From NCBI GenBank assembly GCA_964199315.1, contig OZ116707.1, positions 1,364,001 through 1,428,000 on the forward strand: a stretch of 64,000 nt of DNA, in the 5' to 3' direction. The first letter of the stretch is position 1. Every line of letters starts with the position of its first letter. This document shows positions 13,111-35,900 of the stretch, one piece after another. Below the pieces are notes generated by a model, which saw only the letters and a list, made by a program, of their open reading frames with translations, was not told the DNA's origin and made no database searches. The translations under genes and the position numbers were made by a program. Source of the stretch: Orbicella franksi (lineage: Eukaryota).

Positions 13111-13357
13111 AGTAGTATAGGGGGGCGGTTTGAGACCTAGCCAATCAGAGTGCGTTATTTTGGACACGTGACGCGTCTAGACCAATCAGCGTGCAGGATT
13201 TTTGGCTCAGGTCAGCGGTTGCATTAGTTCGCATTAGGAAAGACTGGGGCGAGCTCGGCCAAAAGTGGCCACGTGGGGTTGGACGCAAGGCCGTGAGGGT
13301 CTGGGGAGCGGAAGTGACGACAGACCACGTGATCAGTTTTCAAATTTTATTTACAAT
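13111..13357 (+). repeat. Left TIR (247 bp)
   Basis: Reverse complement of 35666-35900 apart from 5 substitutions and one 18-vs-6-nt block (13271-13288). Confidence 0.97.
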
Positions 13358-14161
13358 CCAGATTGTGTCCAGGTTAATCCGCTGGTGTAGGGTGCGTCTG
13401 GGTAGTATTCGGGTGACCAAAATCGTGTCATACGAATGTTCGTGACGGTGACTTCGTTTCTGTCAAAAGCGTACCTTCGTCCTTCCCGTTCGTAGTCGGC
13501 AATGTGAGTGAAATGTTCTCGGTGCACGACTTCTTGCAGGCAGGGATACACAGCGCCGGGAATGAGTCTGTTGACCAACCGGTAAAATGTTTTTCTGACT
13601 TCTGGGGTGGGTTCGTTGGGGGTGTTGACGGAGGCGTGAATGAACATGGGGTTTCTACCATCGGGTGAAGTGGAGATGAACCAATCCAGTTGGACCCAGA
13701 AGATGTACCAAACAAGAGGATCAATGGGAAAAGGCAGACTGTCCCAGGAGCTGGTCCCTTCTTGGTGAAGGGTGTGAGCCGTGGCGCTGGCTCGTGTATC
13801 ACTGATGGCGTTTCGGGCACGTTCCAAGGGTGTGAGACCTACAAGTTCGTGAGGTGGCACCTAAATCGGGTGATTGTCGGGACTGGCATTCAACTGTTCG
13901 TTGGCTCGGAGATCATCGTCATCATCTACGCTGACGGTGTCGTTACTATCCTCGGGGCAGGGATGTCGACAATGACCACATTGGAAGCTTCATTCGTTGG
14001 CCTTTTTGAAGGAGCGTTTGTAGAAATTTTCCGCAACAGGGCATGACGTGACGTGTGACGGATTGGATGTCTAATTCCAATAAACAGATGAAACAGGCAT
14101 CTTTGAACGGGGAGAGTTCGGGTCCCATACCTTGTAATCGTAGACTTTGCCTGGAAGCCAT
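13351..14161 (-). pseudogene. RING-finger protein with acidic tract, reconstructed across one frameshift, one TGA and one TAG
   Basis: Reconstruction: MASRQ...CFICLLELDIQSVTRHVMPCCGKFL[fs]KRSFKKANE*SFQCGHCRHPCPEDSNDTVSVDDDDD...HPI*VPPHEL...SGL; the last part is in frame with ORF 13351-13860. Confidence 0.7.
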
Positions 14162-14352
14162 GATGGAAAATTACAGCATGTGCTCTGGCTCGCTTCTTTT
14201 AAATAGGAGCGGGTCATGTGATTTTTTTGTGTGCCCGGTAGAGGGGGGATGGGGGGTATCCCCCTCTGGTGATGTCATGAGAAAGAAGGGTGTTGATTGG
14301 TGGAGGTGTGGATTAAAATAGGAGGGCGTGCGATTCTTGGTTTTGTTTCAAA

Positions 14353-14661
14353 ATGCCTATTACGCGAGGTTTCCTGACTATTGTGGCGGAGGTGGATATG
14401 ACGTTGGAGCAGCTGAGTGATGAGTGGGAACGCGTGCAGTCTAAGAGGCGACGCGCTAGGACTGCGGAGGCGCAGGAATTATTGAAGAGAAAGTCGAGGT
14501 TAATCCTGAGGGTGATCCTGAGGTTTCAGAAGTGTCGAGGGGAATTGATCCGTATTGACGAAGAGTATGGGAACAGTGTGGAGAGACAGAGGGTCAAAGA
14601 AAAAATGGAAGTGCGACTGTCGGACATGGAGCAATTATTTGCTTACTTCAGTAAATTTTGA
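14353..14661 (+). CDS. Hypothetical coiled-coil/basic protein (102 aa)
   Basis: ATG-started ORF downstream of a TATA-like sequence; charged helical composition; no family recognised. Confidence 0.65.
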   Translation: MPITRGFLTIVAEVDMTLEQLSDEWERVQSKRRRARTAEAQELLKRKSRLILRVILRFQKCRGELIRIDEEYGNSVERQRVKEKMEVRLSDMEQLFAYFSKF

Positions 14662-14685: not shown

Positions 14686-15255
14686 TTATTGAACAATGTT
14701 TGTCAACCAAAACCAGAAAGCGTGACATTCTGTGACTGGACAATGATGGATACTCTCGTCTTGATGAAAACCGCAGCTAGGTAATAAACGTTCATTTGAA
14801 ATGATGTGTCTGAGTTTGTCGTATTTGGGACAACCCAATGTTTCTAGATCGAGCGAAGGAATGTTCAGTGTCTTTAACAAATCTTTTTCCACGTGTCCTC
14901 CCTTGTACCCCACCACGGTTCTCTGTCCTTGTTTGTACCTGGCGTAGAGGCTCAGGATCAGGTCTTTGAGTTCTTTGGGTTTGTGGTAGTGTTCAGCCTT
15001 GAGGGGTTGATAACTCAATCCGTGAATCTTCTTTGTCACAAAATTCACCGTGCGTTTGTCTTTGTCGCTCAACTCTTTGTAAGGAATGGGGATGCTGAAG
15101 GCGTGTCTTCCATTCTCTCGGTTCCAAGCGTAATAACCCAGTTCTCTGACTTGAAAGGTCTTGTTGATGAAAAAACCTTCTAAATCCAAAATGAAGCAAA
15201 GTTTGTGCTGTAACCCTTCCATGTTTGAAACTGAATGACTGTGTTTTTTATGCAC
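14686..15255 (-). CDS. DnaQ/DEDD-like 3'-5' exonuclease-fold protein (likely start ATG 15222)
   Basis: FILDLEGFF (Exo I D-x-E), HGL, GYKGGHVEKDLL, C-terminal CGFH...HHC; minus-strand AATAAA beside the stop. Confidence 0.55.
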   Translation of the reverse strand: MHKKHSHSVSNMEGLQHKLCFILDLEGFFINKTFQVRELGYYAWNRENGRHAFSIPIPYKELSDKDKRTVNFVTKKIHGLSYQPLKAEHYHKPKELKDLILSLYARYKQGQRTVVGYKGGHVEKDLLKTLNIPSLDLETLGCPKYDKLRHIISNERLLPSCGFHQDESIHHCPVTECHAFWFWLTNIVQ

Positions 15256-15475
15256 TGTCTTTTATGGGTGGAGGCAAACCTCTTCGTTCCAGGTACAAAC
15301 GTTCTTTGGGGGTGAATTCGTCGTAGAGGTACTGGTCGTGAAATTGTTGGGGTGTGTTCTCTCGGAGTAGTCGGTCTAGGTTGAACTTGGTCCGCGGGCT
15401 CAAATCAGGTCGATCCCAGTTCCCTTCGAAGGGACCCAGAGCCTCTGCACTGGGTTGAAGGGAGTGGGGTTCCAC
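15248..15475 (-). CDS. Hypothetical protein (75 aa)
   Basis: ATG ORF packed tightly between neighbouring minus-strand genes. Confidence 0.55.
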   Translation of the reverse strand: MEPHSLQPSAEALGPFEGNWDRPDLSPRTKFNLDRLLRENTPQQFHDQYLYDEFTPKERLYLERRGLPPPIKDSA

Positions 15476-15484
15476 CCAAACTTT

Positions 15485-15889
15485 TCAACCCTCTTCTAAC
15501 CAGAATCTGACCTTGCTTTGGGGGTATTCATCGGCCCATTGAAAGAGGTCGCATTGGTGCTTGGCACACCTGAAGTAAAACTTGCCCGGGTTCTTTTCTG
15601 ATCTAGACATGCTCATGATGAGAGGTCTTTGGCAATAGCATTTCATTTTTTCCACGGGTAATTGGACATAGTAGTCGTTCAGCATACGTTGGCCGGAAGT
15701 CACATAACATTGGATGTTGTCAACGCCTGCACAGGCAAAACATTCGGGCACAGGACATTTGTAATAGGACCAACGCCCGTAGGCCGTGGTCGTCTCATGC
15801 TTCTTTAATTCTTGCTTGGGGTGTCTAGGGCAAGGAAGGGTGTGGGGTGGTGAAGGGTTCCTGTAGGGTGTTTTCCATTCTTGTTTCAT
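15485..15889 (-). CDS. GRF-type zinc-finger protein with an additional N-terminal Cys/His cluster
   Basis: CYCQRPLIMSMSRSEKNPGKFYFRCAKHQCDLFQWAD matches the zf-GRF pattern (C-x-C...S...N-x-G-[RK]-x-FY-x-C...C-x-[FL]F-x-W-x-D). Confidence 0.8.
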   Translation of the reverse strand: MKQEWKTPYRNPSPPHTLPCPRHPKQELKKHETTTAYGRWSYYKCPVPECFACAGVDNIQCYVTSGQRMLNDYYVQLPVEKMKCYCQRPLIMSMSRSEKNPGKFYFRCAKHQCDLFQWADEYPQSKVRFWLEEG

Positions 15890-16419
15890 ACCGTTGAGGA
15901 AAGCATCGGGATCGAATTCGTTTGGCTTGACGTAATCTTTAACTTCCCAGAAGGTGTGGATGGCGGGGAGTTTGTCTGCATCTGAGAAACAGAGGACAAG
16001 TTATTTTCTTTTTCTAACCGTTCGAGTATACGCATACGTCTAGGACCAAAAGGGCGTCGTTGGTGTTGAAGTTTGAGGATGAGTTTTTGTTCTTGACGTT
16101 TTAAAGCGAAGTCACTGTTTCTTAAGGGATAATCGTCTTCACAGGTTAATTCTAGTTCTTGCATGGAGTAGTGACTTTTATCCTGAATGAGTTTGACCGT
16201 GACTTTAGCATGGAAATGAACTCGTTTACCTGGTTCCTGTTTGAGTTTCTTGTTCTTCTTCTTTTTGTCCGTTTTCTTTCTCTTCTTGGTACTAAGGGGA
16301 TAGTTGGCGGGCGAATGAGGATTGAGACTATAATCTACCAAACCTTTACCCTCTTCCTCCTGGTCTGGTAACCTATAGCGCGTGGAGGATTCCTCTGGAC
16401 TGGCTGGCGGTGGCTCCAT
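15886..16419 (-). CDS. Hypothetical Lys-rich protein with NLS-like tract (177 aa)
   Basis: KKRKKTDKKKKNKKLK; minus-strand CTATAAATA and CCAAT-type boxes upstream (about 16445-16500). Confidence 0.6.
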   Translation of the reverse strand: MEPPPASPEESSTRYRLPDQEEEGKGLVDYSLNPHSPANYPLSTKKRKKTDKKKKNKKLKQEPGKRVHFHAKVTVKLIQDKSHYSMQELELTCEDDYPLRNSDFALKRQEQKLILKLQHQRRPFGPRRMRILERLEKENNLSSVSQMQTNSPPSTPSGKLKITSSQTNSIPMLSSTV

Positions 16420-16641: not shown

Positions 16642-17052
16642 ATGGATTGCGGCGAAGAGACTCCCCTGGTTGAGCACAAGACCACCTTGAAGAGAAGGAG
16701 GAAAATGAAGCCACCTACCAAGCAGCAAATCCCTGTTGTCAATATGGAGGTGGAAGACGAAAAAGAAGACCCTGATGCTTTGATTTTGTTGATCAAAAAG
16801 ACCATTGATACCATCATGTTAGAGGAAACTGTTGAAACAGGGAAGAAGATGGATAAGTACCGAGGCGTCTTGTCTGGGGGCATTTTGAAAGTGGCAGAGA
16901 AGATGGATGCCGCGGGAAGTCGCGTGGATTTGCTTAAGTTGGTGGATGCCATGCGAGTAGGTCGGAAAGAGTGGAAGACCAGTGGGGAGGAGAAAGCGAC
17001 CCTTGACACCTTCATGAGAGCCATGGACAATGAACAATGGTTCACCTCGTGA
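16642..17052 (+). CDS. Hypothetical protein (136 aa)
   Basis: ATG ORF 41 nt after TATAAAAAACG (16601). Confidence 0.65.
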   Translation: MDCGEETPLVEHKTTLKRRRKMKPPTKQQIPVVNMEVEDEKEDPDALILLIKKTIDTIMLEETVETGKKMDKYRGVLSGGILKVAEKMDAAGSRVDLLKLVDAMRVGRKEWKTSGEEKATLDTFMRAMDNEQWFTS

Positions 17053-17158: not shown

Positions 17159-17755
17159 ATGTTGACCGTGTTGTACAGTAACAGCAACGAGATCGTTGAA
17201 TTGATCGAGTCGGTGTGCAGCTTTCAGGTGTCGCCTTTGGGTTGCATCGATGAAGAGGAAGGGGTCCATGATATGTTGGTGTTTGACATTTTGTTTTACG
17301 GCAAACCCGAGCACGAGTGGACCATTCCTGAACTCCTCCGTCGACGTCCTGAATGGGGATGGCAGATTCTACCTTTACTGAAATCTCAAGTGTGTCGAAC
17401 CTTTCTATTCACCATCGATTGGTACTCCATGGTCTACATCAAGGAATTGAATGTCATCCGTTTTGTGCCAGCTATCGTTCCGCCAGTCTGAATGAAGAAC
17501 CGATTCTGTCTGATGGCCACGTCTTGTTTGACCTTCATGATGAGACAGAAGATCAAGAAGATGGTGGAGCCCCTGACTTATGCCCGAGATATCTCTGTGA
17601 GACTGAGCGACAAACTGAACCGCCCGATTTCATTGGGGACTCCCGCGTATTTCAGAGAACTGACTGAAAAGATGGAGGACTTGCTAGTGGAACTGATGAC
17701 GGAGAGAGACCTTGTAAATAGTTTGAATCACTGTTTGATGAACGAGGATGACTAA
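17159..17755 (+). CDS. Two abutting small hypothetical ORFs (17159-17491; 17492-17755)
   Basis: Co-oriented ATG ORFs; the stop of the first abuts the start of the second; no family recognised. Confidence 0.5.
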
Positions 17756-17822
17756 ATGGTGTAGTGGTCAGTGCGTTGGGCTCATAACCCAAAGGTCCCA
17801 GGTTCGAATCCTGGCTTAGTCC
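17750..17822 (+). tRNA. tRNA-Met(CAT)-like gene inside the Polinton
   Basis: Cloverleaf: acceptor GACTAAA/CTTAGTC (6 of 7 paired), D stem GTGT/GTGC (mostly G:U), anticodon stem TTGGG/CCCAA with loop CTCATAA, variable AGGTC, T arm CCAGG-TTCGAAT-CCTGG; A and B boxes; T6 terminator 17823-17828. Confidence 0.88.
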
Positions 17823-17873: not shown

Positions 17874-18137
17874 ATGGCTAGTGCGTGGTATAGTCTGTGC
17901 GAGCGCTGCGAGCTTCTATATGCCCAGTATGAAAGGAAAGATCCCATTCCCTCGTTGATGGTGTCTGACCCCGAACGGGTGTTTTTGGAGACGCATGTCG
18001 CAGAGAACGTCTGGCGTTTCGTGGTCTTCATATTGTGGTTGAAACGACAACCCCAGTCAATCGTCTGGTACTCTATCATAAGACGAGAACACCCCGAGCT
18101 GATTAGACAAGCTCTGTGCCGATTGTCGACATTATGA
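17874..18137 (+). CDS. Hypothetical protein (87 aa)
   Basis: ATG ORF 44 nt after TATAAAAAACG (17830); overlaps the integrase start. Confidence 0.6.
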   Translation: MASAWYSLCERCELLYAQYERKDPIPSLMVSDPERVFLETHVAENVWRFVVFILWLKRQPQSIVWYSIIRREHPELIRQALCRLSTL

Positions 18138-19216
18138 GTAAGAAAAAGAAGAAGGTGGATCGGTATGCCAATTTGGTGCAGGCCTACGAGGATCCCAGCG
18201 TCCCGGGAAGTCTGGGTGGTGTGACGCGTTTCGCCAAAGCCCGTGGCTTACCCATTGGAGCGGTACGCCAGCGGTTGGAAGCCAGTTTGGGCTACACGCT
18301 TCACAAACCCACCCGTCGTCGTTTTCGTACGGTACCGGTCATGGTCTACGGTATGGACGAACAATGGGTGGCGGATCTCATCGAAGTGGGGAACATTGCC
18401 AAATCGAATCGAGGGTACAAGTAGCTGTTGACGGTGTTGGACGTGTTGTCCAAGTACGCTTGGGTGGAACCGGTCAAGTCCAAGACTGGCAAGGACGTGA
18501 CGGCAGCCTTCGAGAAAATTTTGAAACACAGTGGTGGTAGGATACCTCGCAAGTTGCAAACCGATGACGGGAAAGAATTTTACAACAGGACCTTTCAAGC
18601 CTTGATGACGCGAAAAGACATTCGTCATTTTTCCACCAGCGGCGATACCAAAGCCAGTGTGATCGAACGATTCAATCGCACTTTGAAGAAACGCATGTAC
18701 CGATATTTTACGATCAAGAACACGTTCAGTTATTTACCCGTCTTGAAGGATTTGGTGTTGGGATACAATCGTTCCTACCACCGCAGTATCAAGATGGCGC
18801 CCGAGAAAGTCGACCTGGGGAACGAAGAGCAGGTGTGGAAGACGCTGTACGCGGATCGACTGCAAGCCAAACGCGTGCCGCCCAAGTTGAAAGTGGGGGA
18901 TCGGGTGCGATTGAATAAGAAATACCGCCTGTTCAAGAAAGGGTATTTACCAGGTTGGACCGAAGAAGTGTTTGTGGTGGCTCGTGTGGTGCCGGGTGTG
19001 ATTCCTACCTATAAGATCAAGGAGTGGGACGGAACACCATTGAGTGGCACGTTTTACGCTCAGGATTTGCAGAAAGTGATGGTGAAGAGCGACGATCTTT
19101 TTCGCGTGGAAAAGATCGTCAAACGCAAAGGGAATAAAGTCTTGGTTCGGTGGAAAGGTTGGCCAAACAAATACAACACGTGGATTGAGAAAGGAGCATT
19201 GGTCAAGGCGAGATGA
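18116..19216 (+). pseudogene. Retroviral-type (rve) DDE integrase with C-terminal chromodomain; one in-frame TAG at 18422-18424
   Basis: QWVADL, NRGYK*LLTVLDVLSKYAW (consensus Tyr at the stop), LQTDDGKEF, SVIERFNRTLK, KVGDRVR, FRVEKIVKRK...VLVRWKGWP...NTWI. Confidence 0.95.
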
Positions 19217-20328
19217 AAGAGTTTTATGTGCAATTGATCAGCAGTTCCAGTACCACGGAATTCCCCTCCAATCAAGCCAACAGTTTCAAGAACCATTTGC
19301 CTTACCAGATCCAATTGAAAGAAGAAGGATGGAAAGTGGGTTTGAGTGCTTTCTCTTACCCACCCCCACCCTTGCGACCTCATCAATCACGACCTCACCG
19401 ACCCCACCTCTTCGAAGATGATGACACCCTGTTAGAATTCGATTGGACCATGGAAACCTTCCGTCTTAGTTCCAATGGTATCTGGTTTCCACTTGTCTAC
19501 CGCAATGAATTTTACATCAAGGGTTCCGACCTGCACAAGGACCAGGTCAAAGTCACGAGTGGGAAATCGCTCATGCGATACTTGGTCAATCGTTTGCAAC
19601 ATCGTCTGACTGAGTACATGGAACGTGGCAATGAAAGTCTACGAGCTCCCGACGGTAAAAAATACTACCCTGTGTTTCGTTGGGAAGGGGATTCTTTGAT
19701 TATCGACAACACCGATACGTTCCTCAATCAAAAACCGAATGAAAATAGATTGCGTCCCAAAGTGTGGTTTGGTCCTGAATTGGTCAAGAAACTGAAGTGG
19801 GTGGAAAAGACTGGACTTGCCGATTACAAATTGACCAATCACGTAGTGAAACTCTTCAAAGACGACAAAGTGCCCAATGATTTCAAACTCGATTGGCAGG
19901 ATCAACACAATGCGCATTCCACGAATTTTTGGAACATCAGAGACGATGGCTCCTTACAGCTCAGTTCTTATTGCAATTGGCGTTTCGACTACCTGGACGA
20001 GCTCTATGAGCAGAGCTATGGTGGCAGCATGACCGTCAGTGAGACGCTTCGTACGCCCATGTATGTCTATTGCAATGTGGCGCAAAGTACCGTCATGGGG
20101 AATCAAGTCACCGATCTCTTGAGAGAAGTGCCGCACGATCAGAACACAATGACCTTTGAACCTGCCCACATACAATATCTACCGGTGCGCAGCGACGTGT
20201 TTAACATTATCGAGACGCAAGTGGCCGAGAACGACGGAGCATTGGTGAAATTTCCTTCGGGAGTGACGACTGTCACCTTGCATTTTAAACATGACGGATT
20301 TTTACGTGAGTCTACCGAGCCACAGTAG
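19213..20328 (+). CDS. Minor capsid protein (penton) 1
   Basis: N-terminal FYVQLISSSSTTEFPSNQANSFKNHL...WKVGL; C-terminal MYVYCNVAQSTVMGNQVTDLLREV...YLPVRSDVFNIIETQV...TTVTLHFK. Confidence 0.85.
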   Translation: MKEFYVQLISSSSTTEFPSNQANSFKNHLPYQIQLKEEGWKVGLSAFSYPPPPLRPHQSRPHRPHLFEDDDTLLEFDWTMETFRLSSNGIWFPLVYRNEFYIKGSDLHKDQVKVTSGKSLMRYLVNRLQHRLTEYMERGNESLRAPDGKKYYPVFRWEGDSLIIDNTDTFLNQKPNENRLRPKVWFGPELVKKLKWVEKTGLADYKLTNHVVKLFKDDKVPNDFKLDWQDQHNAHSTNFWNIRDDGSLQLSSYCNWRFDYLDELYEQSYGGSMTVSETLRTPMYVYCNVAQSTVMGNQVTDLLREVPHDQNTMTFEPAHIQYLPVRSDVFNIIETQVAENDGALVKFPSGVTTVTLHFKHDGFLRESTEPQ

Positions 20329-21311
20329 CAAGACCGAGTATCCCGAGAAAAAATCCAACCATTTCAAGATTCGTCTCCCTCATCCTTTGAAAATGGAAGG
20401 CGCCAATTGGAAAGTGGGACTCAGTAGTATCTCGTTACCAGACCCCAAGAGTCAAGTGCCTCCCTTGTTGCAAGGGGACGATGTGATGTTTGAAGGCTAT
20501 TGGTATGTGAAAGACACCGTGCAATTGAACAACCGGAACAATGCAGATGGTGCGGATTTCAAGCCCGAACACCTTCGTACGGGTGATTTGTCCAATCTGA
20601 CGGGTGTGGAATTCATGAAGACCGTCAAGACTTTTTGACACCAGTGTGATAGAAAAGAGGCTTTGAGCGGGTTACCTCTTGGATGAAACCACCAAGAAAA
20701 GTAATCTCTTGAATTTCCGATTTGAAGACGACGATTTTGTCTTCGACAACACGAATATCAACCTGAGGCTCTTCAATGGTAAACATTACCCCCAATTCTA
20801 TGTCAACCTTGAACTGGGCCTCGACATGGGATGGTTCAAGATGAGTGGTAACAATGTGGAGATTGGTCCTAATTTGTCCATGGAACTGAATAACAAAGAA
20901 CTGAAAGTGCCAGCAGCCATCGACATCAGTCCAACTACAGGTGAACCCTATTGGAAATTGACGCCCGACGGAAAGAGAGTTCACTTGACCTCCACCTTTA
21001 ACTGGCGGTTCATCAACCTCAACACCTCGTTAGAGAACGTGACGGGCTCCACCTCGCGTTCGTTGATGATTTATTCAGATGTGGGGACCAGTGGGGTGGT
21101 GGGGAATCAAGTCACGGATCTGTTACGAGAAGTGAATTACCAACGAGAAGGTAAAGGCTTCCAGTATTTTGAACCCCTTCATGTTCAATATATTCCGGTA
21201 CGCAAAGATTACATCGACATTATCGAGACACAAGTCGCGGAGACCACTGGTGAATTGACGAAATTCGGAGCAGGCAATACCATCGTCACGCTACACTTCA
21301 AACAAGAATGA
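20291..21311 (+). pseudogene. Minor capsid protein (penton) 2; frameshift near 20635 and TGA at 20664
   Basis: Same terminal motifs as penton 1 (FYVSLPSHSS..EYP...NHFKIRL...WKVGLSSI; IYSDVGTSGVVGNQVTDLLREV...YIPVRKDYIDIIETQV...VTLHFK). Confidence 0.85.
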
Positions 21312-21559: not shown

Positions 21560-21735
21560 ATATGAATCCGATTTATTCGAGACGTGTTCGACGCATTCCT
21601 CCCATCATCAGTGAGTTGACGCGAGGCAGAAGACTACAAAAGGGAGGCGCATTCTTACCCCACCGCAGACGAGGTCTGGACCCCACTTGGGTACGGAGCG
21701 CTCTCAAGAGAAGACATCGACGAGGACCTAAATGA
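21556..21735 (+). CDS. Arg-rich putative core protein (59 aa, absent from the ORF track)
   Basis: MNMNPIYSRRVRRIPPIISELTRGRRLQKGGAFLPHRRRGLDPTWVRSALKRRHRRGPK*; ATGA overlaps with both neighbours. Confidence 0.7.
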   Translation: MNMNPIYSRRVRRIPPIISELTRGRRLQKGGAFLPHRRRGLDPTWVRSALKRRHRRGPK

Positions 21736-23118
21736 CGACCATGATGGACATTACCCCTCTCCCTGGTTCGGCGGGAGTCAAGAACCCCATGTTGAATTTG
21801 TTTCGGGTACTGCCCACGGATCTGAGTATCTCGAGTTATCGGATGGTACCCGTTCATCCTTTCACCACAGGCATCAACCCCATCGATTTTCAGATCGATC
21901 CTCAAGAAGATTACATTGATTTGTCTCGCAGTTACTTCGAACTGGAATGGAAATTGCAGAAAGCAGCAGGAGGTGATGCCGTGGCCGCCGAAAACACCTT
22001 TTTGGTCAACAACATTGTTCACTCCCTCTTCAAACAGATCAGTGTTAGACTCAATGGTACGCTCATCAGTCCTCAGACGGACACCTACCATTACAAAGCG
22101 TACATCGAAACCTTACTGAATTTTGACAGACGATGGAGACACCATCTTGAGACCTCAAGGCTGGTTCAATTTTATCGATGTGCCCGATACTTTGACAGCC
22201 ACTCAACTGAATCTGGCACACAATGATTTCAAAGCGATGCCACCTGAAAGACAAGCCCTGGTGCGTGAACTCAGAGCCCAAGCTACTGGCACTGATAGTC
22301 AGACACGCATTTACAGCTTCGTACCCCACATCGAAGTTTTTCACCTCAGCAAACTCTTGATACCCAATGTGCAGATTGGTATCCAGTTGTACTTCAATTC
22401 ACCGGATGTGTGGATTTGGCAAATGGACGGTGCTGTGACCTTCCGTATCGATTCCAGAGATATCAAAGTGAAATTGTATCTTTGCCAAGTCAGACTCAAC
22501 CCGTCCGTCTACCGAGAATTGATGAATGACATGGGAAGTGGAAGAAACGTGGTCAATTATCCTACGGTCAGAAGCGAGATACGAACCTACATCACGCAAA
22601 ACGAGTTACACTATGAAATCACCAATCCGTTCCAGAACCGGTTACCCAACATGCTAGTGGTGGGATTGGTGGCTTCTACAGCCTTCAACGGCGCCGTCGA
22701 CAAGTATCCCTTCACCTTCCAGCAATTTAATCTGACCAGCATCAAACAATTGGTGAGAGGAGAAGCCTATCCCTACGAAGTCTTGGAATTGCTCCACACC
22801 AATGGAAGCAGAGACATGAGAGGCTACAGACAATTCCTACAAGCCACAGGAAGTTTGTGCAAGAGCAAAGGAAACATGGTGAGAGCCAAAGATTGGGGAC
22901 GAGGTAAAGGATGCACGTTGTTTGTATTTGAGAACGCTGCCAACGGTTGCCTCAACAGTCCAGTGTTGAACCCCAAGCTGAGCGGTGAGTTGCGGTTGGT
23001 GTTCGACTTTGGAGCCGATCAAGGTGCTAACATCACGGCCATCCTCTACGCTGAATTTGAAAATCTCTTGGAGATTAATAGCAACAAGACTGTGCAATAC
23101 GACGTGTACCAAGTGTAA
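21732..23118 (+). pseudogene. Major capsid protein (double jelly-roll, Polinton PY/hexon-like); frameshift near 22128
   Basis: IDLSRSYFELE, NNIVHSLFKQISVRLNG, YHYKAYIETLLNF, FVPHIEVF, RLPNMLVVGLV, PFTFQQF, LFVFE, AILYAEFENLLEI; gac aga cga tgg suggests a 2-nt loss from LLNFDRDDG. Confidence 0.9.
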
Positions 23119-25486: not shown

Positions 25487-25492
25487 ATAGTC

Positions 25493-26026: not shown

Positions 26027-26033
26027 GGGTTCA

Positions 26034-26828: not shown

Positions 26829-26863
26829 AAAAGCTGGGTCTTGACTCCACCCCATTCAAAACG

Positions 26864-27166
26864 ATGGCAAGACGCCGACGTAAGCTCTCCATGCTCTCCC
26901 GGCGCAAGATACGGCAACGAGGTGACGACATCTTCAGAGTAGCTGGCCCTATAGGTGGTATAGCCAAGTTCTTAGACAAGCAGGTTCAAAAGCACTGACC
27001 CAAGTTGGAACGCGCCATTCGGAAAATACCCTTTCAATCTGCCCTCAAACCCGTCAAGAAAAAACGCAAGACCCCGTTCCGTGTTCCAGCGGGTGTCAAA
27101 ATGGTGGAGTCGATTCAGGGCATAAAAGACTTTACCCCTTACTACCGACTCAGAAAGAGGCGATGA
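26864..27166 (+). pseudogene. Basic hypothetical protein of 100 codons with internal TGA at 26996 (absent from the ORF track)
   Basis: MARRRRKLSMLSRRKIRQRGDDIF...QVQKH*PKLERAIRK...YYRLRKRR*; ATGA overlap with 27163. Confidence 0.65.
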
Positions 27167-27486
27167 ATCGATTACGACGACAACGCCCATTCTTGACCAG
27201 TATTCTCCAAGAAGCCAATCGTTTCAAACGTCAAGAGATGTTGGAACGCGCCAACGCCGACCAGATCAACGCGGTCAGTGAAATGGTCTTGAATCTGTTG
27301 AAAAAGAGAATTCCCGTCAGGCCTCAGATGCTTCGCAAACTTCAACGCCATAAGAACGTGTTGCGCAAAGTGGGGAAGCGCAGAAATTCACTGAAGAGGA
27401 GGCGTCAACATCTGTTGGCTCAGACAGGGAGTGGATTCTGGCGAGGTTTGAATGAGTGTTACGAACATGTCGGGTCGAGACGCTGA
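27163..27486 (+). CDS. Conserved small Polinton protein (PW-like)
   Basis: INAVSEMVLNLLKKRIPV...KLQRHKNVLRK...QTGSGF resembles the conserved ~100-aa Polinton protein (pattern recall). Confidence 0.6.
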   Translation: MNRLRRQRPFLTSILQEANRFKRQEMLERANADQINAVSEMVLNLLKKRIPVRPQMLRKLQRHKNVLRKVGKRRNSLKRRRQHLLAQTGSGFWRGLNECYEHVGSRR

Positions 27487-27895
27487 CGGTTACCCCTTGC
27501 AGGGCATCGACGTGGTGCCTGAACGCGTGAGAGAGAACAGAAAACTAGTCGAGATCAAAGACAACATGACCAAGCTCATTGGATTGTTACAAGAAGCCAA
27601 TCACAGAGAAGAACAACTAAAGCTAGTTCAAGAGCGTCAGCATCGAAAATACAGAGCTCTCGAACAGGAATATTTGGCTTTAAAATACGGTAACAGGTGT
27701 GACGATTGCATACGAGTCCAAGACGACGTGGAAGACGTGATCATTCCCTGCCAGACCTGTGCCAAACCCAACGAGACCATCCAGAGTCTGCAATTGAAAT
27801 TGGAAAAAGCTCGTCAAGAAGCAAGTTACTGGCAAGACTGTTTTGAAACCGCGTTGCAGTATGACGGAAGAGGTCATGATGGTGCCGGTCAGTGA
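27452..27895 (+). CDS. Coiled-coil protein with CxxC...CxxC
   Basis: RCDDC...PCQTC between heptad-like segments. Confidence 0.55.
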   Translation: MSVTNMSGRDADGYPLQGIDVVPERVRENRKLVEIKDNMTKLIGLLQEANHREEQLKLVQERQHRKYRALEQEYLALKYGNRCDDCIRVQDDVEDVIIPCQTCAKPNETIQSLQLKLEKARQEASYWQDCFETALQYDGRGHDGAGQ

Positions 27896-28583
27896 ATTCG
27901 AACGTTTGCAAGATTACTACGAAGGACAGATTTCCCAAAGTGCCCTGTTGAACAAAGCAGGACGATTGGCGGCCGAAAAACAATTGATCTTGGGGAACCC
28001 CACCATTCCTGACGGCATGGCCGTCAAGATGGTCAAACCCTTGGCGCGTGAACAGACTTGATTGACCAAACGGATTCGGACAGGAGGTGCCCCACGGGCT
28101 GGTGTAGGTGCCCCTGCGCCGGATGAAGAAGCCCTGGACAGTCCCTTGGAAAACTTGTTGAAACAAGTCATCCAAGGTCAAACACCCGCCAGGATCAAGC
28201 AAGAAGTGTCCACACCCGCGGGTACGTCTGGGATCAAACCCAAACCCCGTCGACTCTTACCCGAAACACCCAAGACCGTGAAAAAGCCTGCCTCCAGTGC
28301 TAAGCCGAGTTGAATACCGCGACCCATATCCAGCGGTAAGAAGCCTAAATCGGGTGGTTTGAAACAAAGCGTGTTGAGCAGAGCCAAGAAAGGCTTTTTA
28401 AGGGGCATTGGTCTGGATCCCCAATCAATTGACGACGACCTCAACGACGAAGAGGGTGGATACAGTCCCAAGAAAGTCACCAAGAAACAAAAGAAGCGTA
28501 AACCCACAGCAGATGAACGCCTGAAGCCTTGGGAAGGGTGGAAAAACCCCAGTCGACGACGTCTCAGCTATGACAAGAACTAG
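27861..28583 (+). pseudogene. Hypothetical protein of about 240 codons split by TGA at 28059 and 28311
   Basis: ORFs 27843-28061, 28062-28313 and 28359-28583 share one frame. Confidence 0.7.
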
Positions 28584-28926
28584 AGCCAACAAGACCAGGA
28601 CTCGCAAAAAGCAACGCGGTTATGGCTTCGACATTCAGAAACTGTTGGGCAAGACGGGCATTGAATTTCATTGGCCGGGCTGTCAGTACATGGGACCGGG
28701 CACCAAACTGAAAAAACGACTGGCCCGAGGAGATCCTGGGATCAATCGTTTGGACCGAATATCCAAACAACACGACATCGATTACAGTCGGGCCAAGAAT
28801 CTGCAGGACAAGTGGAAGGCCGACACCAAGATGATCAAGGCCATTGACAGGTTACCCGGTAGGAAGACCATGACAGAAAGGGTGGTGAAACGAAACATGC
28901 AAGCCAAGAAACGTTTGAAACTGTAA
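28570..28926 (+). CDS. Parvovirus VP1u-type phospholipase A2 (PLA2X-like)
   Basis: Ca-binding loop YMGPG, PGINRLD, catalytic HDIDY. Confidence 0.9.
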   Translation: MTRTRANKTRTRKKQRGYGFDIQKLLGKTGIEFHWPGCQYMGPGTKLKKRLARGDPGINRLDRISKQHDIDYSRAKNLQDKWKADTKMIKAIDRLPGRKTMTERVVKRNMQAKKRLKL

Positions 28927-29018: not shown

Positions 29019-29768
29019 TTATTGTAGATCCCTTTCTCCACGCGCTCGTAAAAATAACTGCGGTTGGGAAGGGCCACTATGTTGGACATACGCTCCTTCC
29101 CAAACAGAAGCAAAGCCTTGACACTCTGGGCACTGGGGGCAGCGGCAGGTCTTGACCACACAAGACTGTCTGACCACTTCCTCATCCTTGACAGCACACT
29201 CCAGCAAGTGATCTAAAAAGTGGTGGAAGGCATCCCTTTTCTGATCCCTCTCCATGCGCAGATTGTAGCGGGAACGCATCTCGGAGAGGTTATTGTAGGT
29301 CAGACCCAGGGACAAGCGAGCAGCCACATCCTCCCACTCACAGAACACGCTTTTCTCCAGAGGCACCCAAAAGGCCAGACCCGTCAAAAAGACGCGATGA
29401 CTGACGTGGCATAGGGCGTTCAACCCGGGTACATTGGCAGCCACGCGTAGCCAATGGATCTCCTTCTGCGTCATAGGAATGCGCGAGACCACCTGATGTT
29501 TCAGGAAACACAGATCGATGAGATCCATGTCCTTCTCAGTGAAGTGATCCTTCTGAACTATGTGATTAAGGGCGCAGGTTTCAATGTGACATTTAGGGCA
29601 CACCAAGTGCGTTCCATTGGGTAGTCTCACTAGACAGGAGTTGTGCACCCCCTCTTTGCAACATTCCAACAGGAAGAGCTTTTCACCGTCTTTCATCTCG
29701 GAACTGGAACACACCACACATTTGATCGAATGATCGACAGGATTAAAGGCAGCCATTTTTTTCTGCAA
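29019..29768 (-). CDS. RING-like zinc finger plus death-domain-like protein (249 aa)
   Basis: CVVC-x14-CC-x3-VHNSC-x11-CPKC; WEDVAARLSLGLTYNNLSEMRSRY...DQKRDAFHHFL. Confidence 0.6.
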   Translation of the reverse strand: MQKKMAAFNPVDHSIKCVVCSSSEMKDGEKLFLLECCKEGVHNSCLVRLPNGTHLVCPKCHIETCALNHIVQKDHFTEKDMDLIDLCFLKHQVVSRIPMTQKEIHWLRVAANVPGLNALCHVSHRVFLTGLAFWVPLEKSVFCEWEDVAARLSLGLTYNNLSEMRSRYNLRMERDQKRDAFHHFLDHLLECAVKDEEVVRQSCVVKTCRCPQCPECQGFASVWEGAYVQHSGPSQPQLFLRARGERDLQ

Positions 29769-29845: not shown

Positions 29846-30259
29846 TCATACAAAAAACTGTGTGCCATCAGGCGTATCAATTCTATAATAAATAAACGAT
29901 TTCACGTGATTACAACGTTGTAAGGCCTGATCCAAATTAAATGCCAAAAAGGCCCTTTTCCGTTGACCCCCTATATCCACATACTTCCCATACCATTTAT
30001 CATCATAATGTTCATTCACACCAGGTTCGCATACAATCAACATAGGCACAGCCACAACAGATCCTTTCTCCCACTTAATTTTCAAGGCGTGAAACTTCTT
30101 AATCTCCTCACACAAATTCTTTCTTTTTTCTTTCTCCACCTCATCCAAATGTTCCTGATTAATCTTCAAATTCAAAATTTTCGAGGCAACGTGCCAGGGT
30201 AATAAATCCCAGTAACTCTCAACGTCTTGACTCAATTTCACTTTAGTCTTCGCATCCAT
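29846..30259 (-). CDS. F-box-like paralog 3
   Basis: SYWDLLPWHVASKIL...QEHLD...RKNLCEEIKKFHALKIKW; paralogous to the next two ORFs. Confidence 0.65.
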   Translation of the reverse strand: MDAKTKVKLSQDVESYWDLLPWHVASKILNLKINQEHLDEVEKEKRKNLCEEIKKFHALKIKWEKGSVVAVPMLIVCEPGVNEHYDDKWYGKYVDIGGQRKRAFLAFNLDQALQRCNHVKSFIYYRIDTPDGTQFFV

Positions 30260-30261
30260 TT

Positions 30262-30636
30262 CTAAGGAAAAAAGAGGGTCAAATTTTGTTTAATTTCATG
30301 TAAGTACACTTGTTGCAAACAATTACCTACCAACACCGATCGACCGTTATAATAGAGAAGCACTTTTTCATGATAGATGACGTCAAATGTGACACGCCCA
30401 TCCTTCCAATTCATTCCGTTACAAATATGACAGCGAAAAGGTTGACATCGCACGTGACCTAGGTCCCATTCACGTTTGACGCGATGATAGATTCGAATCA
30501 TTTCACACAACTCTTTTTGTCGGTCCGACACCATGTCCAATCGTTCCTGTCGCAGCCTTAAATCGAGAATGTACGATTGAATTTCGGGTGGTAGACAATC
30601 CCAATGGCTTGTCATTCTAGAACAAAAACAAAACAT
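30262..30636 (-). CDS. F-box-like paralog 2 (likely start ATG 30615)
   Basis: SHWDCLPPEIQSYILDLRLRQERLD...KELCEMIRIYHRVKREW.LGHVRC. Confidence 0.7.
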   Translation of the reverse strand: MFCFCSRMTSHWDCLPPEIQSYILDLRLRQERLDMVSDRQKELCEMIRIYHRVKREWDLGHVRCQPFRCHICNGMNWKDGRVTFDVIYHEKVLLYYNGRSVLVGNCLQQVYLHEIKQNLTLFFP

Positions 30637-30985
30637 CCTCTCTCAACATATCGCACTTGGCAACCGTCACGTTACTTGCCGCTTGTTTCAAAGAGTAACC
30701 TAACATCACCCTACGATTGCGATAATGACCATACACTCTCGCACGAAAAGCCATACATAAACGACAATGGTGAGGCTCACACCTCAAATGTCCTATACTC
30801 CATTTCTCTTTCAAATAATGGTATAATCTCATTTCTTCGCATAATCTCTTTCGTGGTGCCGTCAAGACATCCAATCGTTCCTGTTTATATTTTAAGTCCA
30901 CAATGTAACATTGGATTTCAACCGGAAGACGATCCCAATGACTGATCATAGCTAAAAAACAAACGTTTATAACCTTTAAAAGCAC
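30617..30985 (-). CDS. F-box-like paralog 1 (likely start ATG 30949)
   Basis: SHWDRLPVEIQCYIVDLKYKQERLD...KRLCEEMRLYHYLKEKW.IGHLRC. Confidence 0.7.
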   Translation of the reverse strand: MLLKVINVCFLAMISHWDRLPVEIQCYIVDLKYKQERLDVLTAPRKRLCEEMRLYHYLKEKWSIGHLRCEPHHCRLCMAFRARVYGHYRNRRVMLGYSLKQAASNVTVAKCDMLREDVLFLF

Positions 30986-31214
30986 GGTTCACATTCATTC
31001 GCAACTCTTTGAAATGCATCTCCCTCAAAAAGCCCAACTGCTCTTCCGCGAACAAACAGTCAATGTCCCGCAGCACCGCATCAATAAAAACTGACAGATT
31101 CCGCAAGTCATTGTATAATAAACTCGCGCCATTTTCTTTCTCACGCTCCTTCCACTCATTCACCCACTGCGTCAAAGTAGTCATCTTTCGATTGCATTGA
31201 TTCAAGGTATCCAT
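30918..31214 (-). CDS. Hypothetical helical protein (98 aa)
   Basis: First ATG ORF of the minus-strand accessory block. Confidence 0.55.
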   Translation of the reverse strand: MDTLNQCNRKMTTLTQWVNEWKEREKENGASLLYNDLRNLSVFIDAVLRDIDCLFAEEQLGFLREMHFKELRMNVNRAFKGYKRLFFSYDQSLGSSSG

Positions 31215-31501
31215 TGTTAACTCACCTCCACTATTTCTTTAAATGGCAAACTTCAATCACAACAATACCAATCACAGTCAGCGCAAATAGGTCCACCTCC
31301 AAAGAAATCTTCACCAACGGTAAACTCACTTCAAGCTTCATCAGTCGAGTCACCACCGTCAAGGCGCACCATTTTTATACAGGTCGAATCGAGACACGTG
31401 ATGTGACGTCACCAGAGGGGGGATGGGGGTATCCCCCACTCCTACGTCATTAAAAAAGGTGGGAACCACCACCCTATAAAACGTAGATCCCTCCCACTCA
31501 T

Positions 31502-31573
31502 GCTTCGATGGTCTAGTGGTTAAGACGTTGCGTTGTGGCCGCGAAGACTCAGGTTCGATTCCTGGTCGGGTCA
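31502..31573 (+). tRNA. tRNA-His(GTG)-like gene inside the Polinton
   Basis: Acceptor GCTTCGA/TCGGGTC (one mismatch, two G:U), D stem GTCT/AGAC, anticodon stem TTGCG/CGCGA with loop TTGTGGC, T arm TCAGG-TTCGATT-CCTGG, A73; A and B boxes; T7 run 31577-31583. Confidence 0.88.
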
Positions 31574-31668: not shown

Positions 31669-34600
31669 ATGTTTCGCTTCCCGAGAGACGATTTCGACCT
31701 CAACAATGAAGAAGACAACGCCCTTTTAGCCCAACATTTGGATGACATTGAACAAGGCTTTGATTTTCTCTTAACGCCTCACTTGGATCGACGCGTTCGC
31801 CATTTAGGCGTCAGACACTGAAATTATGTGGGACGGTTAATGCAAAGCGGTGGTGCTGCACCTCTCTCCACCAACCGAAGACATCCTACCGCGTCAAATA
31901 GAACGAGCCCTCCAACGTGCCATACGAGACCAAATCATCCAAGATCCCGAAGTCGATCGCAACGATCACTTCCTCATCAACATGAATTCCAACCGATTGA
32001 GACACTCCTATCACTCAGCTCGCATGCGTGTCAGAGAATGGATGAACAATGATCTCAGAGCCCAAGAAATCATGCAGCAAATTTCAAAGATGTTAAACTC
32101 CAACGAACAGTTCCGATTGGATGACACCTTCTCGTTACACATTTCACATATCCGAGATCCCGGCCGAGGTAGCGGTAAACAGCGACTTCGCAAAGCCAGC
32201 TTAGCCCTCGACAAGCTACTCGATCTCAAAAAGTGCGTCATCCAAATCAACAACGAGGACGAACTCTGTTGTGCATGGGCTCTGGTCACCATGCAAGCCT
32301 ACTGCGACGTAGGCAGTCGACATCCTGAGTACGTCAACCTACGATGCGGCAAACCCGCTCAAGGAAGAAAGGCCAAGGCACTCCACCAGGCTGCGGGTGT
32401 CCCTGAAGGACCTTGCGGTCTCACCGAACTCCACACCTTCCAACGTCATCTCACCGATTATCAGATCGTGGTGCTTTCCCTGGATCATAATTATCAAATC
32501 ATTTTCAAAGGCCCGCCATGTGACAAACAACTCATCCTCATCAAAGCGGGTGAACATTATCACGGTTGCAATTCACTCTCCGCCTTCCTAGGAAAATCCA
32601 ATTTTTGCATCGAGTGTGAAAAGAGCTACCAGACCGATGACATCAATCATCATCCCTGCCACGGAAAGAAATGTCCTGCTTGCTGTCAAACCCAGTGTGA
32701 AGATTGTCATCGCGCCAGCGACACCACACACCTGCCCTCAATGTCACCGCGCCTTCTTCGGAGAACAATGCTTGGCCAATCATTACGCTTACTCCAAGAC
32801 GGACGGCACCAAAGCCAACGCCGCCAAAAAAATCAAAAACGTCTGCAGTTCCCTACGCAAGTGTCCTCGGTGCAACAGATTACTCAGACCTCGCGAGATC
32901 GAAACGCGTCACGTGTGCAGCACCGCCGAATGTCCCTCCTGCATGGAGTATCACAATCTCTACCGACACCAATGCTTCATACAGAATCCCACCAAGTTAG
33001 AAGAAAAGCGAACATTACTGAAATCCAGAAAACGCAAAGCTGACGGTTCGCAGAGCGTGCACACCAAAGACCATCTCTTTGTCTACTGGGACAGCGAAAC
33101 CATGCAAGACACAGGTGTTGACGTCCCCAACTTGGTGTGCGCTGCCACTTCCAACTGCCAGGAACTCTTTCATTTTGAAGGTGCCACCTGCATTCGAGAT
33201 TTCTTGGATTGGTTGAGAGCTTTAGCTCAGGATTGTACCCTCACTGTCATAGCCCACAATTCCCAAGGGTTCGATTCTTACTTGATACTGGATGAACTCT
33301 ACCAACAATACGTCGTGCCCGAGCAAGTGGTCAACGGCGCTAAGATCCTGTCTTTGTCCATCAACGGAGGAGACATTGTTTTCAAAGATTCTCTCTGCTT
33401 CTTTCAAATGCCACTGGCCAATTTTCCCAAAGCCTTTGGACTGGTTGAACAAAAGAAAGGTTTCTTCCCCCACTTCTTCAACACCCCCGACCATCAAGAT
33501 TACGTGGGACCTCTACCCGACAAAGAACATTACGACCCCCAAGGCATGTCCACAGAACGCGTGCAAGAGTTCGAACGCTGGTATGCCCAACAACTCGCCG
33601 AGCCCGACTTGATCTTCGATTTCCAAGCAGAACTCGTGGCCTACTGTGAATCCGACGTGCTCCTCCTCAAAGGGGCCTGCGAAGTGTTCTGCCAAGAATT
33701 CGAAGCCATCAGCGGCTTCAATCCTCTCCAACGCTGTCTCACCATCGCCTCCGCCTGCAATCTCTTCTACCGCACCAAACACATGCCAGAACGTACCATC
33801 GCTTCGGAACCCATCAGTGGATGGCATAGACAAGGCAAACTGCATTCCCTCGCGTCCCTGGAATGGTTGACCTACATGAACCAAAAACCCGATCACCACA
33901 TTCGACACGCCCTTAACGGAGGGGAACACGTGATCCTACGCGGAGACAAAACCTTCGTGGATGGGTACGACGACGTCACCCTTACCGTGTACGAATTTCA
34001 CGGTTGCTTCTGGCACGGGTGTCCCAAGTGTTACCCGGACCGCAACTGCACGCGTCACAAAATGTGCGATCAGACCATGCATGATGTTTACGAAGCCACC
34101 CAACTCAAAGAAGAGAGTCTCTTGGGTGCGGGCTACAATGTCGTGGTCATGTGGCAATGTGAATGGGAACAACTCAAGCAAGAGGATGAGCAGCTGCGGA
34201 GCCTGGTCCAATCCTTCGACCTGGTCCCCAGACTCAAACCCAGAGACGCGTTCTACGGCGGACGCACCAACGCCATCAAACTTTACCATCAAGTGGAACA
34301 AGGAGAAACGGTGCAGTACCTGGATTTCACCTCCCTCTACCCCTGGACTAACAAAAACTGTCCCTACCCTGTGGGTCATCCCGCCATCATCAGTCAACCC
34401 GAAGGCACCGACATCTCCAGTTACTTCGGTCTGGTCAAATGCAAGATCCTACCACCCTTTGGGTTGTATCATCCGGTCTTACCCCACTGCAGTGGGGGTA
34501 AACTCACCTTTCCACTGTGCAGAACTTGCGTGGAAACCGAGCAACCCAAACCGCTGACCGAACGTAGTCATCGCTGCGTCCACAACGAGCAGGAGCGATG

Positions 34601-35672
34601 TCTGGTGGGTACGTGGCCCACCCCCGAATTGCAAGAAGCCCTTCATCAAGGGTACGTTATCCAATACGTGTACAAAATTTGGCACTTCCCGCGCAATTCC
34701 AACGACTTGTTCTCTTCCTATGTGAACACCTTTCTCAAGATCAAGCAAGAAGCCAGCGGCTGGCCCAATTGGGTGGGTGACGATGCGGTCAAACGTCAAC
34801 AGTACCTCGAAGACTACCTGTCCAAAGAAGGCATTCAACTCAAAGCGGACAAAATTCAAAAAAATCCCGGTCGGCGGTCTCTGGCCAAAATGATGCTCAA
34901 CAGCTTCTGGGGCAAGTACAGGCAACAAGGGAACAAGAGCCAAGTCAAAGCCATTTCGTCCCCCGCCAGGCTTCACGCCCTCCTGACCGATGACAGTTGA
35001 GAAATTCAAACCCTTCGTGTCATGAACGGCGAGATGATCGAATTGGTCTACAAACACGTCCAAGACGAAGAAGCCGTTCAAGTCAACATCAACATTTTCA
35101 TGGCCTGCTTCACCACCTGTTGGGCCAGACTCAAACTCTACCGAGAAGGACTCAGTCGACTCCAACCCCAACAAGTCCTGTACTTCGACACAGACTCCAT
35201 CATCTGCTCGCACCGAGAAGGTCAGCCCATGCCACCCTTAGGCGATCATCTCGGTCAATTCACCAGCAAATTGAAACCAGGTACTCACATCGTGGAGTTT
35301 GCGGCCGCTGGCCCCAAGAATTACGGTTACCAAACCAACGATGGTAAAGTCGAATGCAAGGTACGCGGTTTCACCCTCAACACACGTGGGCAAGCCCAAT
35401 TGAACTTTGACCTGTTAAAAGAAAACGTCATCAACGAAGTCACCGAACCCCGCGAAGAACCACAGGAAATCAGTGTACACAATCCACACAAGATTAAACG
35501 CAATGTCCAAACCAAAACATTAGAAACGATCGAAGAAACCAAACGATACAAAGTCGTCTTCGACAAACGCGTCGTGGATCCCGACACTTTCCTCTCATAT
35601 CCTTACGGATACACCCGAGCCAACATCGACGACACCGACATGGACAATGTCAATCATTTACTAGAATTGTAA
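31669..35672 (+). pseudogene. Protein-primed family B DNA polymerase (pPolB) with N-terminal extension, Zn fingers and VSR-like nuclease insert; TGA at 31819 and 34998, frameshifts near 31865 and 32720
   Basis: YWDSET (Exo I), AHNSQGFD (Exo II), KDSL, KGFFPH, YCESDV (Exo III), YLDFTSLYP (A), KMMLNSFWGK (B), YFDTDS (C), GPKNYGY, KVRGF; YEFHGCFWHGC (VSR-like). Confidence 0.97.
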
Positions 35673-35900
35673 ATAAAATTTGAAAACTGATCACGTGGTC
35701 TGTCGTCACTTCCGCTCCCCAGACCCTCACGGCCTCGCGCGGCCACTTTTGACCGAGCTCGCCCCAGTCTTTGCTAATGCGAACTAATGCAACCGCTGAC
35801 CTGAGCCGAAAATCCTGCACGCTGATTGGTCTCGACGCGTCACGTGTCCAAAATAACGCGCTCTGATTGGCTAGGTCTCAAACCGCCCCCCTATACTACT
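35666..35900 (-). repeat. Right TIR (235 bp)
   Basis: Inverted match to 13111-13357. Confidence 0.97.

Follow-up and report, generated by a model that had tools for sequence, protein, structure and literature searches.

Virus-specific tRNA genes as selected cargo of Polinton/adintovirus-type elements in the coral Orbicella franksi

Phages and giant viruses are the expected carriers of bona fide transfer RNA (tRNA) genes; small DNA viruses of animals are not. Here, we describe a tRNA-Met and a tRNA-His gene within one endogenous element of the Polinton/adintovirus type, 22.8 kb long, in DNA of the coral Orbicella franksi (GCA_964199315.1, contig OZ116707.1). The stretch analysed, termed the window, comprises 64 kb; the element occupies window positions 13111-35900. 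Comparison with its copies and relatives shows that the tRNA genes are selected cargo, with selection acting in the replicating phase, and that a virus-specific tRNA-His is present in four Polinton lineages at a mobile position. These tRNAs are probably working RNAs that serve the virus, and the chances are about even that their job is translation support. Selection on the tRNAs indirectly indicates that such elements pass through a stage resembling true infection, with host translation limiting or under attack.

The element is bounded by terminal inverted repeats (TIRs; 13111-13357, + strand, and 35666-35900, - strand) and a 6-bp target-site duplication (13105-13110 and 35901-35906), and its GC content of 46-53% contrasts with 30-44% in the surrounding host DNA. 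Pfam matches above the cut-off comprise an rve integrase with chromodomain, DNA_pol_B_2, a PLA2-like protein and a GRF finger; matches to a Pox_A32 ATPase (E 1.4e-4) and Peptidase_C5 (0.005) fall under the cut-off but in the expected block, and two of three paralogues show a PRANC/F-box-like match, also under the cut-off (0.002 and 0.018). The capsid genes, which in Polintons encode a double jelly-roll major and a single jelly-roll minor protein, have no Pfam or PHROG match here, and we infer the major and minor capsid proteins from position and size only. PF03175-type DNA polymerase B (PolB) together with PLA2X marks the Alpha adintoviruses (PMC8502044), and both genes are present here. These features bear out the adintovirus-type element that a first-pass annotation of the window had proposed. 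For the OTU-like domain that Alpha adintoviruses have at the PolB N terminus, a search confined to Pfam gave no OTU match at E 0.05 in 31841-33040. The window copy is a fossil, its integrase, capsid, PolB, RING and GRF genes being interrupted.

ARAGORN and Rfam each called exactly two RNA genes in the 64 kb, tRNA-Met(CAT) at 17750-17822 and tRNA-His(GTG) at 31502-31573, both on the + strand as annotated earlier, with Rfam RF00005 scores of 56 and 52 bits, respectively (cut-off 29). Both had been placed at borders between accessory and core genes. This holds for tRNA-His, which sits in the divergent gap between a small open reading frame (ORF; 30918-31214, - strand, dN/dS 0.33) that adjoins it in families A and B (defined below) and the gene for the protein-primed DNA polymerase B (pPolB; 31841-35672, + strand, DNA_pol_B_2 E 2e-38, in three pieces here). 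The fit is less good for tRNA-Met, the start of which overlaps the last codon and stop of a conserved ORF (17159-17755, + strand, interrupted by one stop here); because this ORF and the next one (17874-18137, + strand, preceding the integrase in all families sampled with that region) are both common to sister families, tRNA-Met lies within a conserved block.

Eukaryotic tRNA-His is defined by a cloverleaf, a GUG anticodon, A73 and a G-1 that is not encoded in the gene. The viral tRNA-His shows all of these states, as do the host His genes. In the window copy, it carries two copy-private changes, a TATA element 27 nt upstream (31475-31481, + strand; situated between -26 and -34 in all 11 family-A His loci measured) and a T-run terminator 3 nt behind. 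The window tRNA-Met is followed directly by a T6 terminator and has one copy-private mismatch in the acceptor stem. Across all 24 family-A tRNAs measured, a T4 terminator lies within 0-1 nt of Met (13/13) or 1-16 nt of His (11/11). Given strong A and B boxes, the TATA kept upstream of His and predicted transcripts of less than 90 nt, both genes look by layout like plain RNA polymerase III (Pol III) tRNA units of 72-73 nt.

The junction around tRNA-Met has 14 full-length matches in the genome, 13 of them with tRNA-Met, and the junction around tRNA-His has 12, of which 10 were called His, one has a changed anticodon and one lacks a tRNA. Weaker junction matches are other Polintons and not host tRNAs. 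Among the 13 other copies of the element (family A), 11 have a 6-bp duplication of their own and two lack one end; the hexamers differ between copies, which therefore represent separate insertions. Copies differ pairwise by 0.019 on average in Met and by 0.036 in His, compared with mostly 0.12-0.26 at silent sites (pS) and 0.06-0.16 between genes (copies with less than 70% coverage per gene were left out here and for dN/dS).

To separate changes before and after insertion, variants in at least two copies (shared) were taken to have arisen during element replication and those in one copy were regarded as private, using 11 family-A copies after dropping A5 (same target sequence as A4), A8 and A14 (partial). 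Shared variants affect three of 139 tRNA sites versus 279 of 1,090 fourfold sites (Fisher p 4e-13) and 97 of 629 intergenic sites (p 2e-6), and outside the A and B boxes three of 93 tRNA sites (p 4e-8); as the copies are related, these p-values overstate independence and serve as guides only. At second codon positions of core genes, shared variants occur at 80 of 2,695 sites, whereas private variants affect 17 of the 139 tRNA sites. With shared variants few and private ones accumulating, the tRNAs were constrained like core protein sites while replicating and decay once inserted.

The same tRNA-His recurs in sister families. In family B, the largest, with core proteins about 55-74% identical to those of family A, the gene is on the opposite strand close to one terminal repeat; 11-13 kb separate it from the ATPase, on the flank that does not contain pPolB. 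It is often accompanied by a Met gene, and a second Met occurs in the right block of some copies. In family C, tRNA-His is found just upstream of pPolB in the same sense, as in family A, and in family E, known from metagenome contigs, it stands antisense at the junction ahead of the integrase block where family A has Met. The position of tRNA-His is not fixed across relatives, and many Polintons lack the gene. Whereas fourfold sites differ by 56-64% between families, which is near saturation, only 2-10 of 72 nt distinguish the His genes of one family from those of another, and 12-14 positions separate them from the host gene; the viral genes thus form one virus-specific tRNA-His lineage. In 16 distinct viral His rows, 97.6% of stem cells are paired, and pair 30-40 is C-G, A-U or G-C depending on the family, a compensatory pattern. 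The covariation score was reached by none of 500 shuffles and rests on three pairs with two-sided change.

Among 100 listed of 108 genomic matches to the His motif, 70 are virus-type, 29 are host-type in clusters and one is unrelated; virus-type genes hence outnumber host-type genes among the matches listed, and Polintons inflate the number of tRNA genes counted in such genomes. For the virus-type Met loop, there are 44 matches, one of them inside the host cluster, next to 45 host initiator-type genes. Of 74 virus-type His genes, 68 have one of the 150 Polinton ATPases listed no more than 20 kb away. In metagenomes, the His motif was found on 47 contigs of 10 assemblies; 32 of these have Polinton protein matches and 13 of the 15 others Polinton-type flanks. 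In IMG/VR, the capsid query gave one weak locus and the His motif no match. In an integrase tree of 28 rows (pieces shorter than 110 aa left out), the clades of families A and C join (support 95/92), His occurs in both well-supported halves and tRNA-less elements are nested among carriers, as would be expected from ancient carriage followed by losses, or from transfer of the gene among families.

Initiator tRNA-Met is characterised by an A54/A60 T-loop and C33, and both are found in the host genes here. The window tRNA-Met has an initiator-derived centre, a His-like D- and T-arm, G1-C72 and C73. G1-C72, U33 and C73 are present in all eight virus-type Met genes aligned, versus A1-U72, C33 and A73 in the host initiator. 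The Met genes of families A and B have a 29-nt centre in common, and the three G-C pairs of the initiator anticodon stem are retained in virus Met genes; the initiator T-loop is retained in family B and absent from family A, and C33 is absent from both (U33). As the family-A T-arm is identical to that of the His genes over 17 nt and the D-arm is His-like, family-A tRNA-Met looks like an initiator/His mosaic. Part of it could instead stem from elongator Met or another elongator; three patterns for host elongator tRNA-Met, which would detect an intron-less gene, had no match in the genome, for which an intron or an unusual variable loop may account. Family-B Met acceptor stems carry a mismatch, whereas the family-A acceptor is fully paired and combined with an elongator-type T-loop in most copies. 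The A1-U72 pair is needed for eIF2 binding (PMC11231383) and C73 hampers CCA addition (PMC4477674). Because A1-U72 is missing, we predict that the viral tRNA-Met serves not as an initiator but as an elongator, or else as a decoy with poor charging. Separately, the anticodon stem of a family-C tRNA-His (L131:2989-3060) equals that of the family-B tRNA-Met, a hint of exchange between viral tRNAs.

On our reading, the element lineage has had a tRNA-His of its own, together with a tRNA-Met derived from an initiator, as selected cargo for a long time. Judging from A and B boxes, TATA and T-run, host Pol III likely transcribes both during the replicating phase; the transcripts would be trimmed normally to about 72 nt, and the tRNA-His, with GUG anticodon and A73 as in the host, would be charged. 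The tRNAs likely keep translation running for the virus, and the extra tRNA-His might also refill or shield a pool drained by the host antiviral response. Of the roles suggested in the first-pass annotation, translational support fits best, although not as simple codon compensation.

A narrower reading, rather unlikely as a whole, is a tRNA-based equivalent of adenovirus virus-associated (VA) RNA in an early-branching animal, with tRNA-His as counter-defence against tRNA destruction of the OAS/RNase L type and a disarmed initiator (no A1-U72, C73) as a decoy in eIF2 stress; a link to RNase L in particular is doubtful. In human cells, RNase L depletes tRNA-His more than 10-fold (PMC5648034), and in Nematostella, RNase L and OAS1 homologues are induced by poly(I:C) (PMC8476169). 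The host genome has six OAS1_C matches on one contig, with a tandem cluster of about five OAS1-like genes (C12, 7.70-7.79 Mb), and a single frame of 1,287 aa combining ankyrin, kinase and Ribonuc_2-5A domains (L249:4793-8656), with an interrupted paralogue 20 kb away (L250:2580-6401). In this reading, the viral tRNA-His has come to exceed the host's own in gene copies. The 12-14 positions at which virus-type and host tRNA-His differ would allow them to be told apart by tRNA-seq, a cheap readout of Polinton activity in corals and of tRNA-directed antiviral defence in cnidarians.

Besides the relatedness of the copies and the small number of covarying pairs, several observations speak against such functions. 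Neither exact tRNA motif is found near 78 of the 150 listed ATPase loci, and of 13 such elements sampled one has a variant His, two have a degenerate Asp-like gene and 10 are without an element-borne tRNA; the tRNAs are therefore dispensable. The anticodon loop of the viral tRNA-His is identical to the host's and the tRNA is thus not cleavage-resistant by sequence, C73 disfavours CCA addition (PMC4477674) and so a working tRNA-Met, and the presence of other isotypes (Ala, Asp-like) is unexplained by a His-specific defence. The RNase L-like host gene is assigned by domain order only, the best PDB matches of its kinase and RNase parts being IRE1. As to expression, two poly(A) runs of one sample (X23/X24; species match not established) gave two and one partial reads, a kind of data blind to tRNAs, and metatranscriptome contigs (X1/X13) cover the element evenly, in each of 30 bins and in the TIR too, so that they may derive from DNA.

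In other elements, further tRNA genes were noted. One metagenome contig with a family-A-like element (L173:4153-4226) carries, ahead of pPolB, an additional tRNA-Ala(TGC) that faces tRNA-His. In another family (L196:4247, L202:5310), a tRNA-Asp(GTC)-like gene lies between protease and ATPase; it is degenerate, and its B box is damaged.

Adenovirus VA RNA is a duplex-rich Pol III RNA of about 160 nt, and herpesvirus tRNA-miRNA-encoded RNAs (TMERs) contain pre-miRNA hairpins between tRNA and terminator. Uncharged decoys of this kind, as proposed earlier for the window, would bind a sensor, kinase or nuclease. They would suit tRNA-Met best, in view of its G1-C72, U33 and C73, the effect of the latter on CCA addition (PMC4477674) and the acceptor mismatch of family B. 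The tRNAs, however, end in T4 within 0-16 nt with neither a 3' hairpin nor a long duplex, Rfam returned RF00005 matches only and no VA, His keeps the host identity elements, and family-A Met, in most copies, pairs its whole acceptor stem and has an elongator-type T-loop. Decoys in this sense are unlikely.

We consider it quite unlikely that the genes act as DNA elements, with TFIIIC/TFIIIB sites keeping the pPolB or integrase promoter open or halting silencing, as the proposed TFIIIC barrier would have it. What speaks for it is the place of His upstream of pPolB in the same sense in families A and C, the two joined clades, the occupation of the junction ahead of the integrase block by Met in A or antisense His in E, the strong A and B boxes and the retained TATA. 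A barrier would need only the boxes and a fixed place, but the position varies, with His of the largest family near the terminal repeat and away from pPolB. In addition, the anticodon arm and acceptor stem are as conserved as the boxes and contain compensatory pairs, and the inserted copies, where a silencing barrier would matter, gather private damage. The barrier proposal is thereby weakened; a side role is possible, given that His precedes pPolB in A and C.

Codon compensation, in which the element needs more His or Met than the host pool supplies, is improbable. It is the usual proposal for polinton-like viruses (PLVs) and virophages (PMC12220804, PMC6905037), and the element is GC-richer than its host. 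Nevertheless, His makes up 3.0-3.6% of core-gene residues in six His-bearing elements against 2.6-4.1% in eight without, and Met 1.8-2.4% against 2.1-2.4%; with demand equal in carriers and non-carriers, the simple form was rejected. A single GUG tRNA suffices for both His codons, and host genes of the His and initiator types number at least 29 and 45, respectively.

Lastly, neutral passengers, integration-site remnants, short interspersed elements (SINEs) or a tRNA supply kept by the host might seem to suit the patchy presence across the tree and the surplus of virus-type over host-type His, but they are highly improbable: an internal site far from the ends, differing 6-bp duplications, no SINE tail, selection on shared and much less on private variants, and retention across saturated lineages led us to reject the attachment-site, SINE and neutral readings, and the copies show neither the tRNAs nor the accessory genes to be random passengers, the outcome that would have refuted the first-pass proposal.

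The element and its tRNA genes can be set against known systems. Polintons/Mavericks, Alpha (Mayetiola-class) adintoviruses (PMC8502044) and stony-coral polintoviruses (PMC11131425) resemble the present element in TIRs, 6-bp duplication and PF03175 pPolB, and also in rve integrase, ATPase, adenain protease, PLA2X, an accessory region upstream of PolB and patchy accessory genes. The main text of PMC11131425 is without the terms "tRNA", "F-box" and "death domain", and the accessible text of PMC8502044 names tRNA once, in a figure legend on MELD viruses with other replicases. PLVs and virophages are likewise small integrating DNA viruses with one to few tRNA genes: PLVs have 558, with His in eight of 10 cryptophyte cases (PMC12220804), and Met(CAT) dominates one virophage clade with 57% (PMC6905037). 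Their hosts, in contrast, are protists; supplement 1 of PMC12220804 contains no coral or cnidarian term, and the accessible parts of both papers no test of selection, covariation or origin. Here, the host is an animal, the tRNA lineage virus-specific and one tRNA an initiator-derived mosaic. TMERs of murine gammaherpesvirus 68 (PMC4810235) and adenovirus VA RNA are similar as type-2 Pol III promoters in an animal DNA virus with a possible role against shut-off, yet our genes encode plain cloverleaves of 72-73 nt with 7-nt anticodon loops and an immediate terminator, instead of miRNA hairpins or a long duplex. Chlorovirus and mimivirus tRNAs (PMC4810235) also have A and B boxes, and those of chloroviruses are aminoacylated, but they form clusters in genomes at least 10 times larger, compared with single genes in a 23-kb integrating element. 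We found no report of tRNA genes in animal Polintons in the literature searched; such annotation may nevertheless exist in Repbase notes, in subscription papers and figures, or in supplementary files of PMC8502044 and PMC11131425. The present case contributes a tRNA-His lineage that is virus-specific and can be traced, a separation of selection into the phases preceding and following insertion, and a former initiator tRNA that has been remodelled.

The first-pass annotation had further described two accessory blocks as an "early region" of an undescribed system. Among copies, dN/dS of the accessory frames is 0.19-0.58 versus 0.10-0.21 in integrase, major capsid, protease, ATPase and PolB, and in nine of 11 accessory genes shared changes are rarer at second positions than at fourfold sites (p <0.05); accordingly, these frames are real genes under looser constraint. 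In sister families, they recur on either side of the core. We propose that the RING, F-box-like, GRF and nuclease-like genes represent a mobile pool of host-interaction genes among coral Polintons. The parallel to adenovirus E1/E4 amounts to analogy, as the right block is not terminal, accessory genes switch sides and the Rb-binding LxCxE motif is nearly absent among family-A-like ORFs (one ORF, one of 11 homologues). A new system is therefore not indicated: an "Oncoid" region upstream of PolB is known for adintoviruses (PMC8502044), and accessory-gene gain and loss for coral polintoviruses (PMC11131425).

Within the left block, a RING-finger gene (13351-14170, - strand, about 270 aa in sister copies, dN/dS 0.32-0.35) is broken here, with zf-RING_2 at E 5.6e-4 in a sister copy, under the cut-off. 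It is followed by a small coiled ORF that belongs to no family (14353-14661, + strand, dN/dS 0.19), a predicted DEDD-type nuclease (14686-15222, - strand, dN/dS 0.28), a GRF zinc-finger gene, also broken (15251-15889, - strand, PF06839 E 3.4e-7, dN/dS 0.25), and two small ORFs (15886-16419, - strand, and 16642-17052, + strand; dN/dS 0.58 and 0.30). GRF and, less firmly, RING thus stand as annotated. The DEDD assignment is a lead: the protein has no Pfam or PDB match, its AlphaFold2 model is unusable (predicted local distance difference test, pLDDT, 40), and the ESM Atlas points to Maelstrom (0.88) and a 3'-5' exoribonuclease (0.83).

The right block holds an ORF at 29019-29756 (- strand, dN/dS 0.21), previously read as RING plus death domain, and three paralogous small genes with an N-terminal F-box-like motif (29846-30949, - strand, PRANC E 2.3e-4 to 0.1 and alignment, dN/dS 0.32-0.47). 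The F-box-like assignment stood, if weakly; this family has three near-identical homologues and no PDB match. In the model of ORF 29019-29756 (pLDDT 87), the first 70 residues match RING/PHD-like fingers only, and the finger, like the left RING, is RING- or PHD-like with weak matches. The helical domain behind it has no recognised fold; the structure matches listed for the whole model include no death fold, a result that does not exclude one as the C-terminal part was not searched separately.

Between the blocks, all on the + strand, lie the rve integrase with chromodomain (18134-19216, one stop interrupting it here), two paralogous putative minor capsid genes, the second broken (19213-21311), the putative major capsid gene, also broken (21732-23118), an adenain-type protease (23118-23684), the packaging ATPase, with a frame shorter than in sister copies (23856-24347), a series of conserved small or basic ORFs, probably virion-core genes (24503-28580), and the PLA2X gene (28570-28926, PF08398 E 9.5e-9).

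In several sister Polintons, the core block is surrounded by internal inverted repeats of 100-350 bp (L207/L209, L230/L232, L076/L077, L137/L139, L204/L206, L199/L200, L061/L063), a feature absent from the window's element; in L061/L063, a duplication of tRNA-Met provides this repeat. Elements closely related in the integrase tree have their core reversed relative to pPolB and are possible inversion isomers. A deleted family-A copy (L100) contains an internal inversion with a break near the tRNA-Met block. Two family-A copies on different contigs (L087/L089, L090/L092) share their surroundings, a 210-bp tandem satellite, as well as their target hexamer, and the hexamer of a third is similar. 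At two places (L081/L029, C10 3.35-3.40 Mb; L110/L213), no more than about 15-25 kb separate family-A from family-B copies, and at L093/L233 a family-A copy lies near another Polinton, a possible clustering of insertions. Other mobile DNA in the window comprises a Harbinger-type DDE transposase, a reverse transcriptase, a Mutator-like transposase, YqaJ-like and OTU ORFs, an element with 11-bp subterminal repeats and a 122-bp tandem array (5344-6447, 37119-38243, 38794-40263, 11594-12031, 43983-44459, 47010-54864 and 62410-63376).

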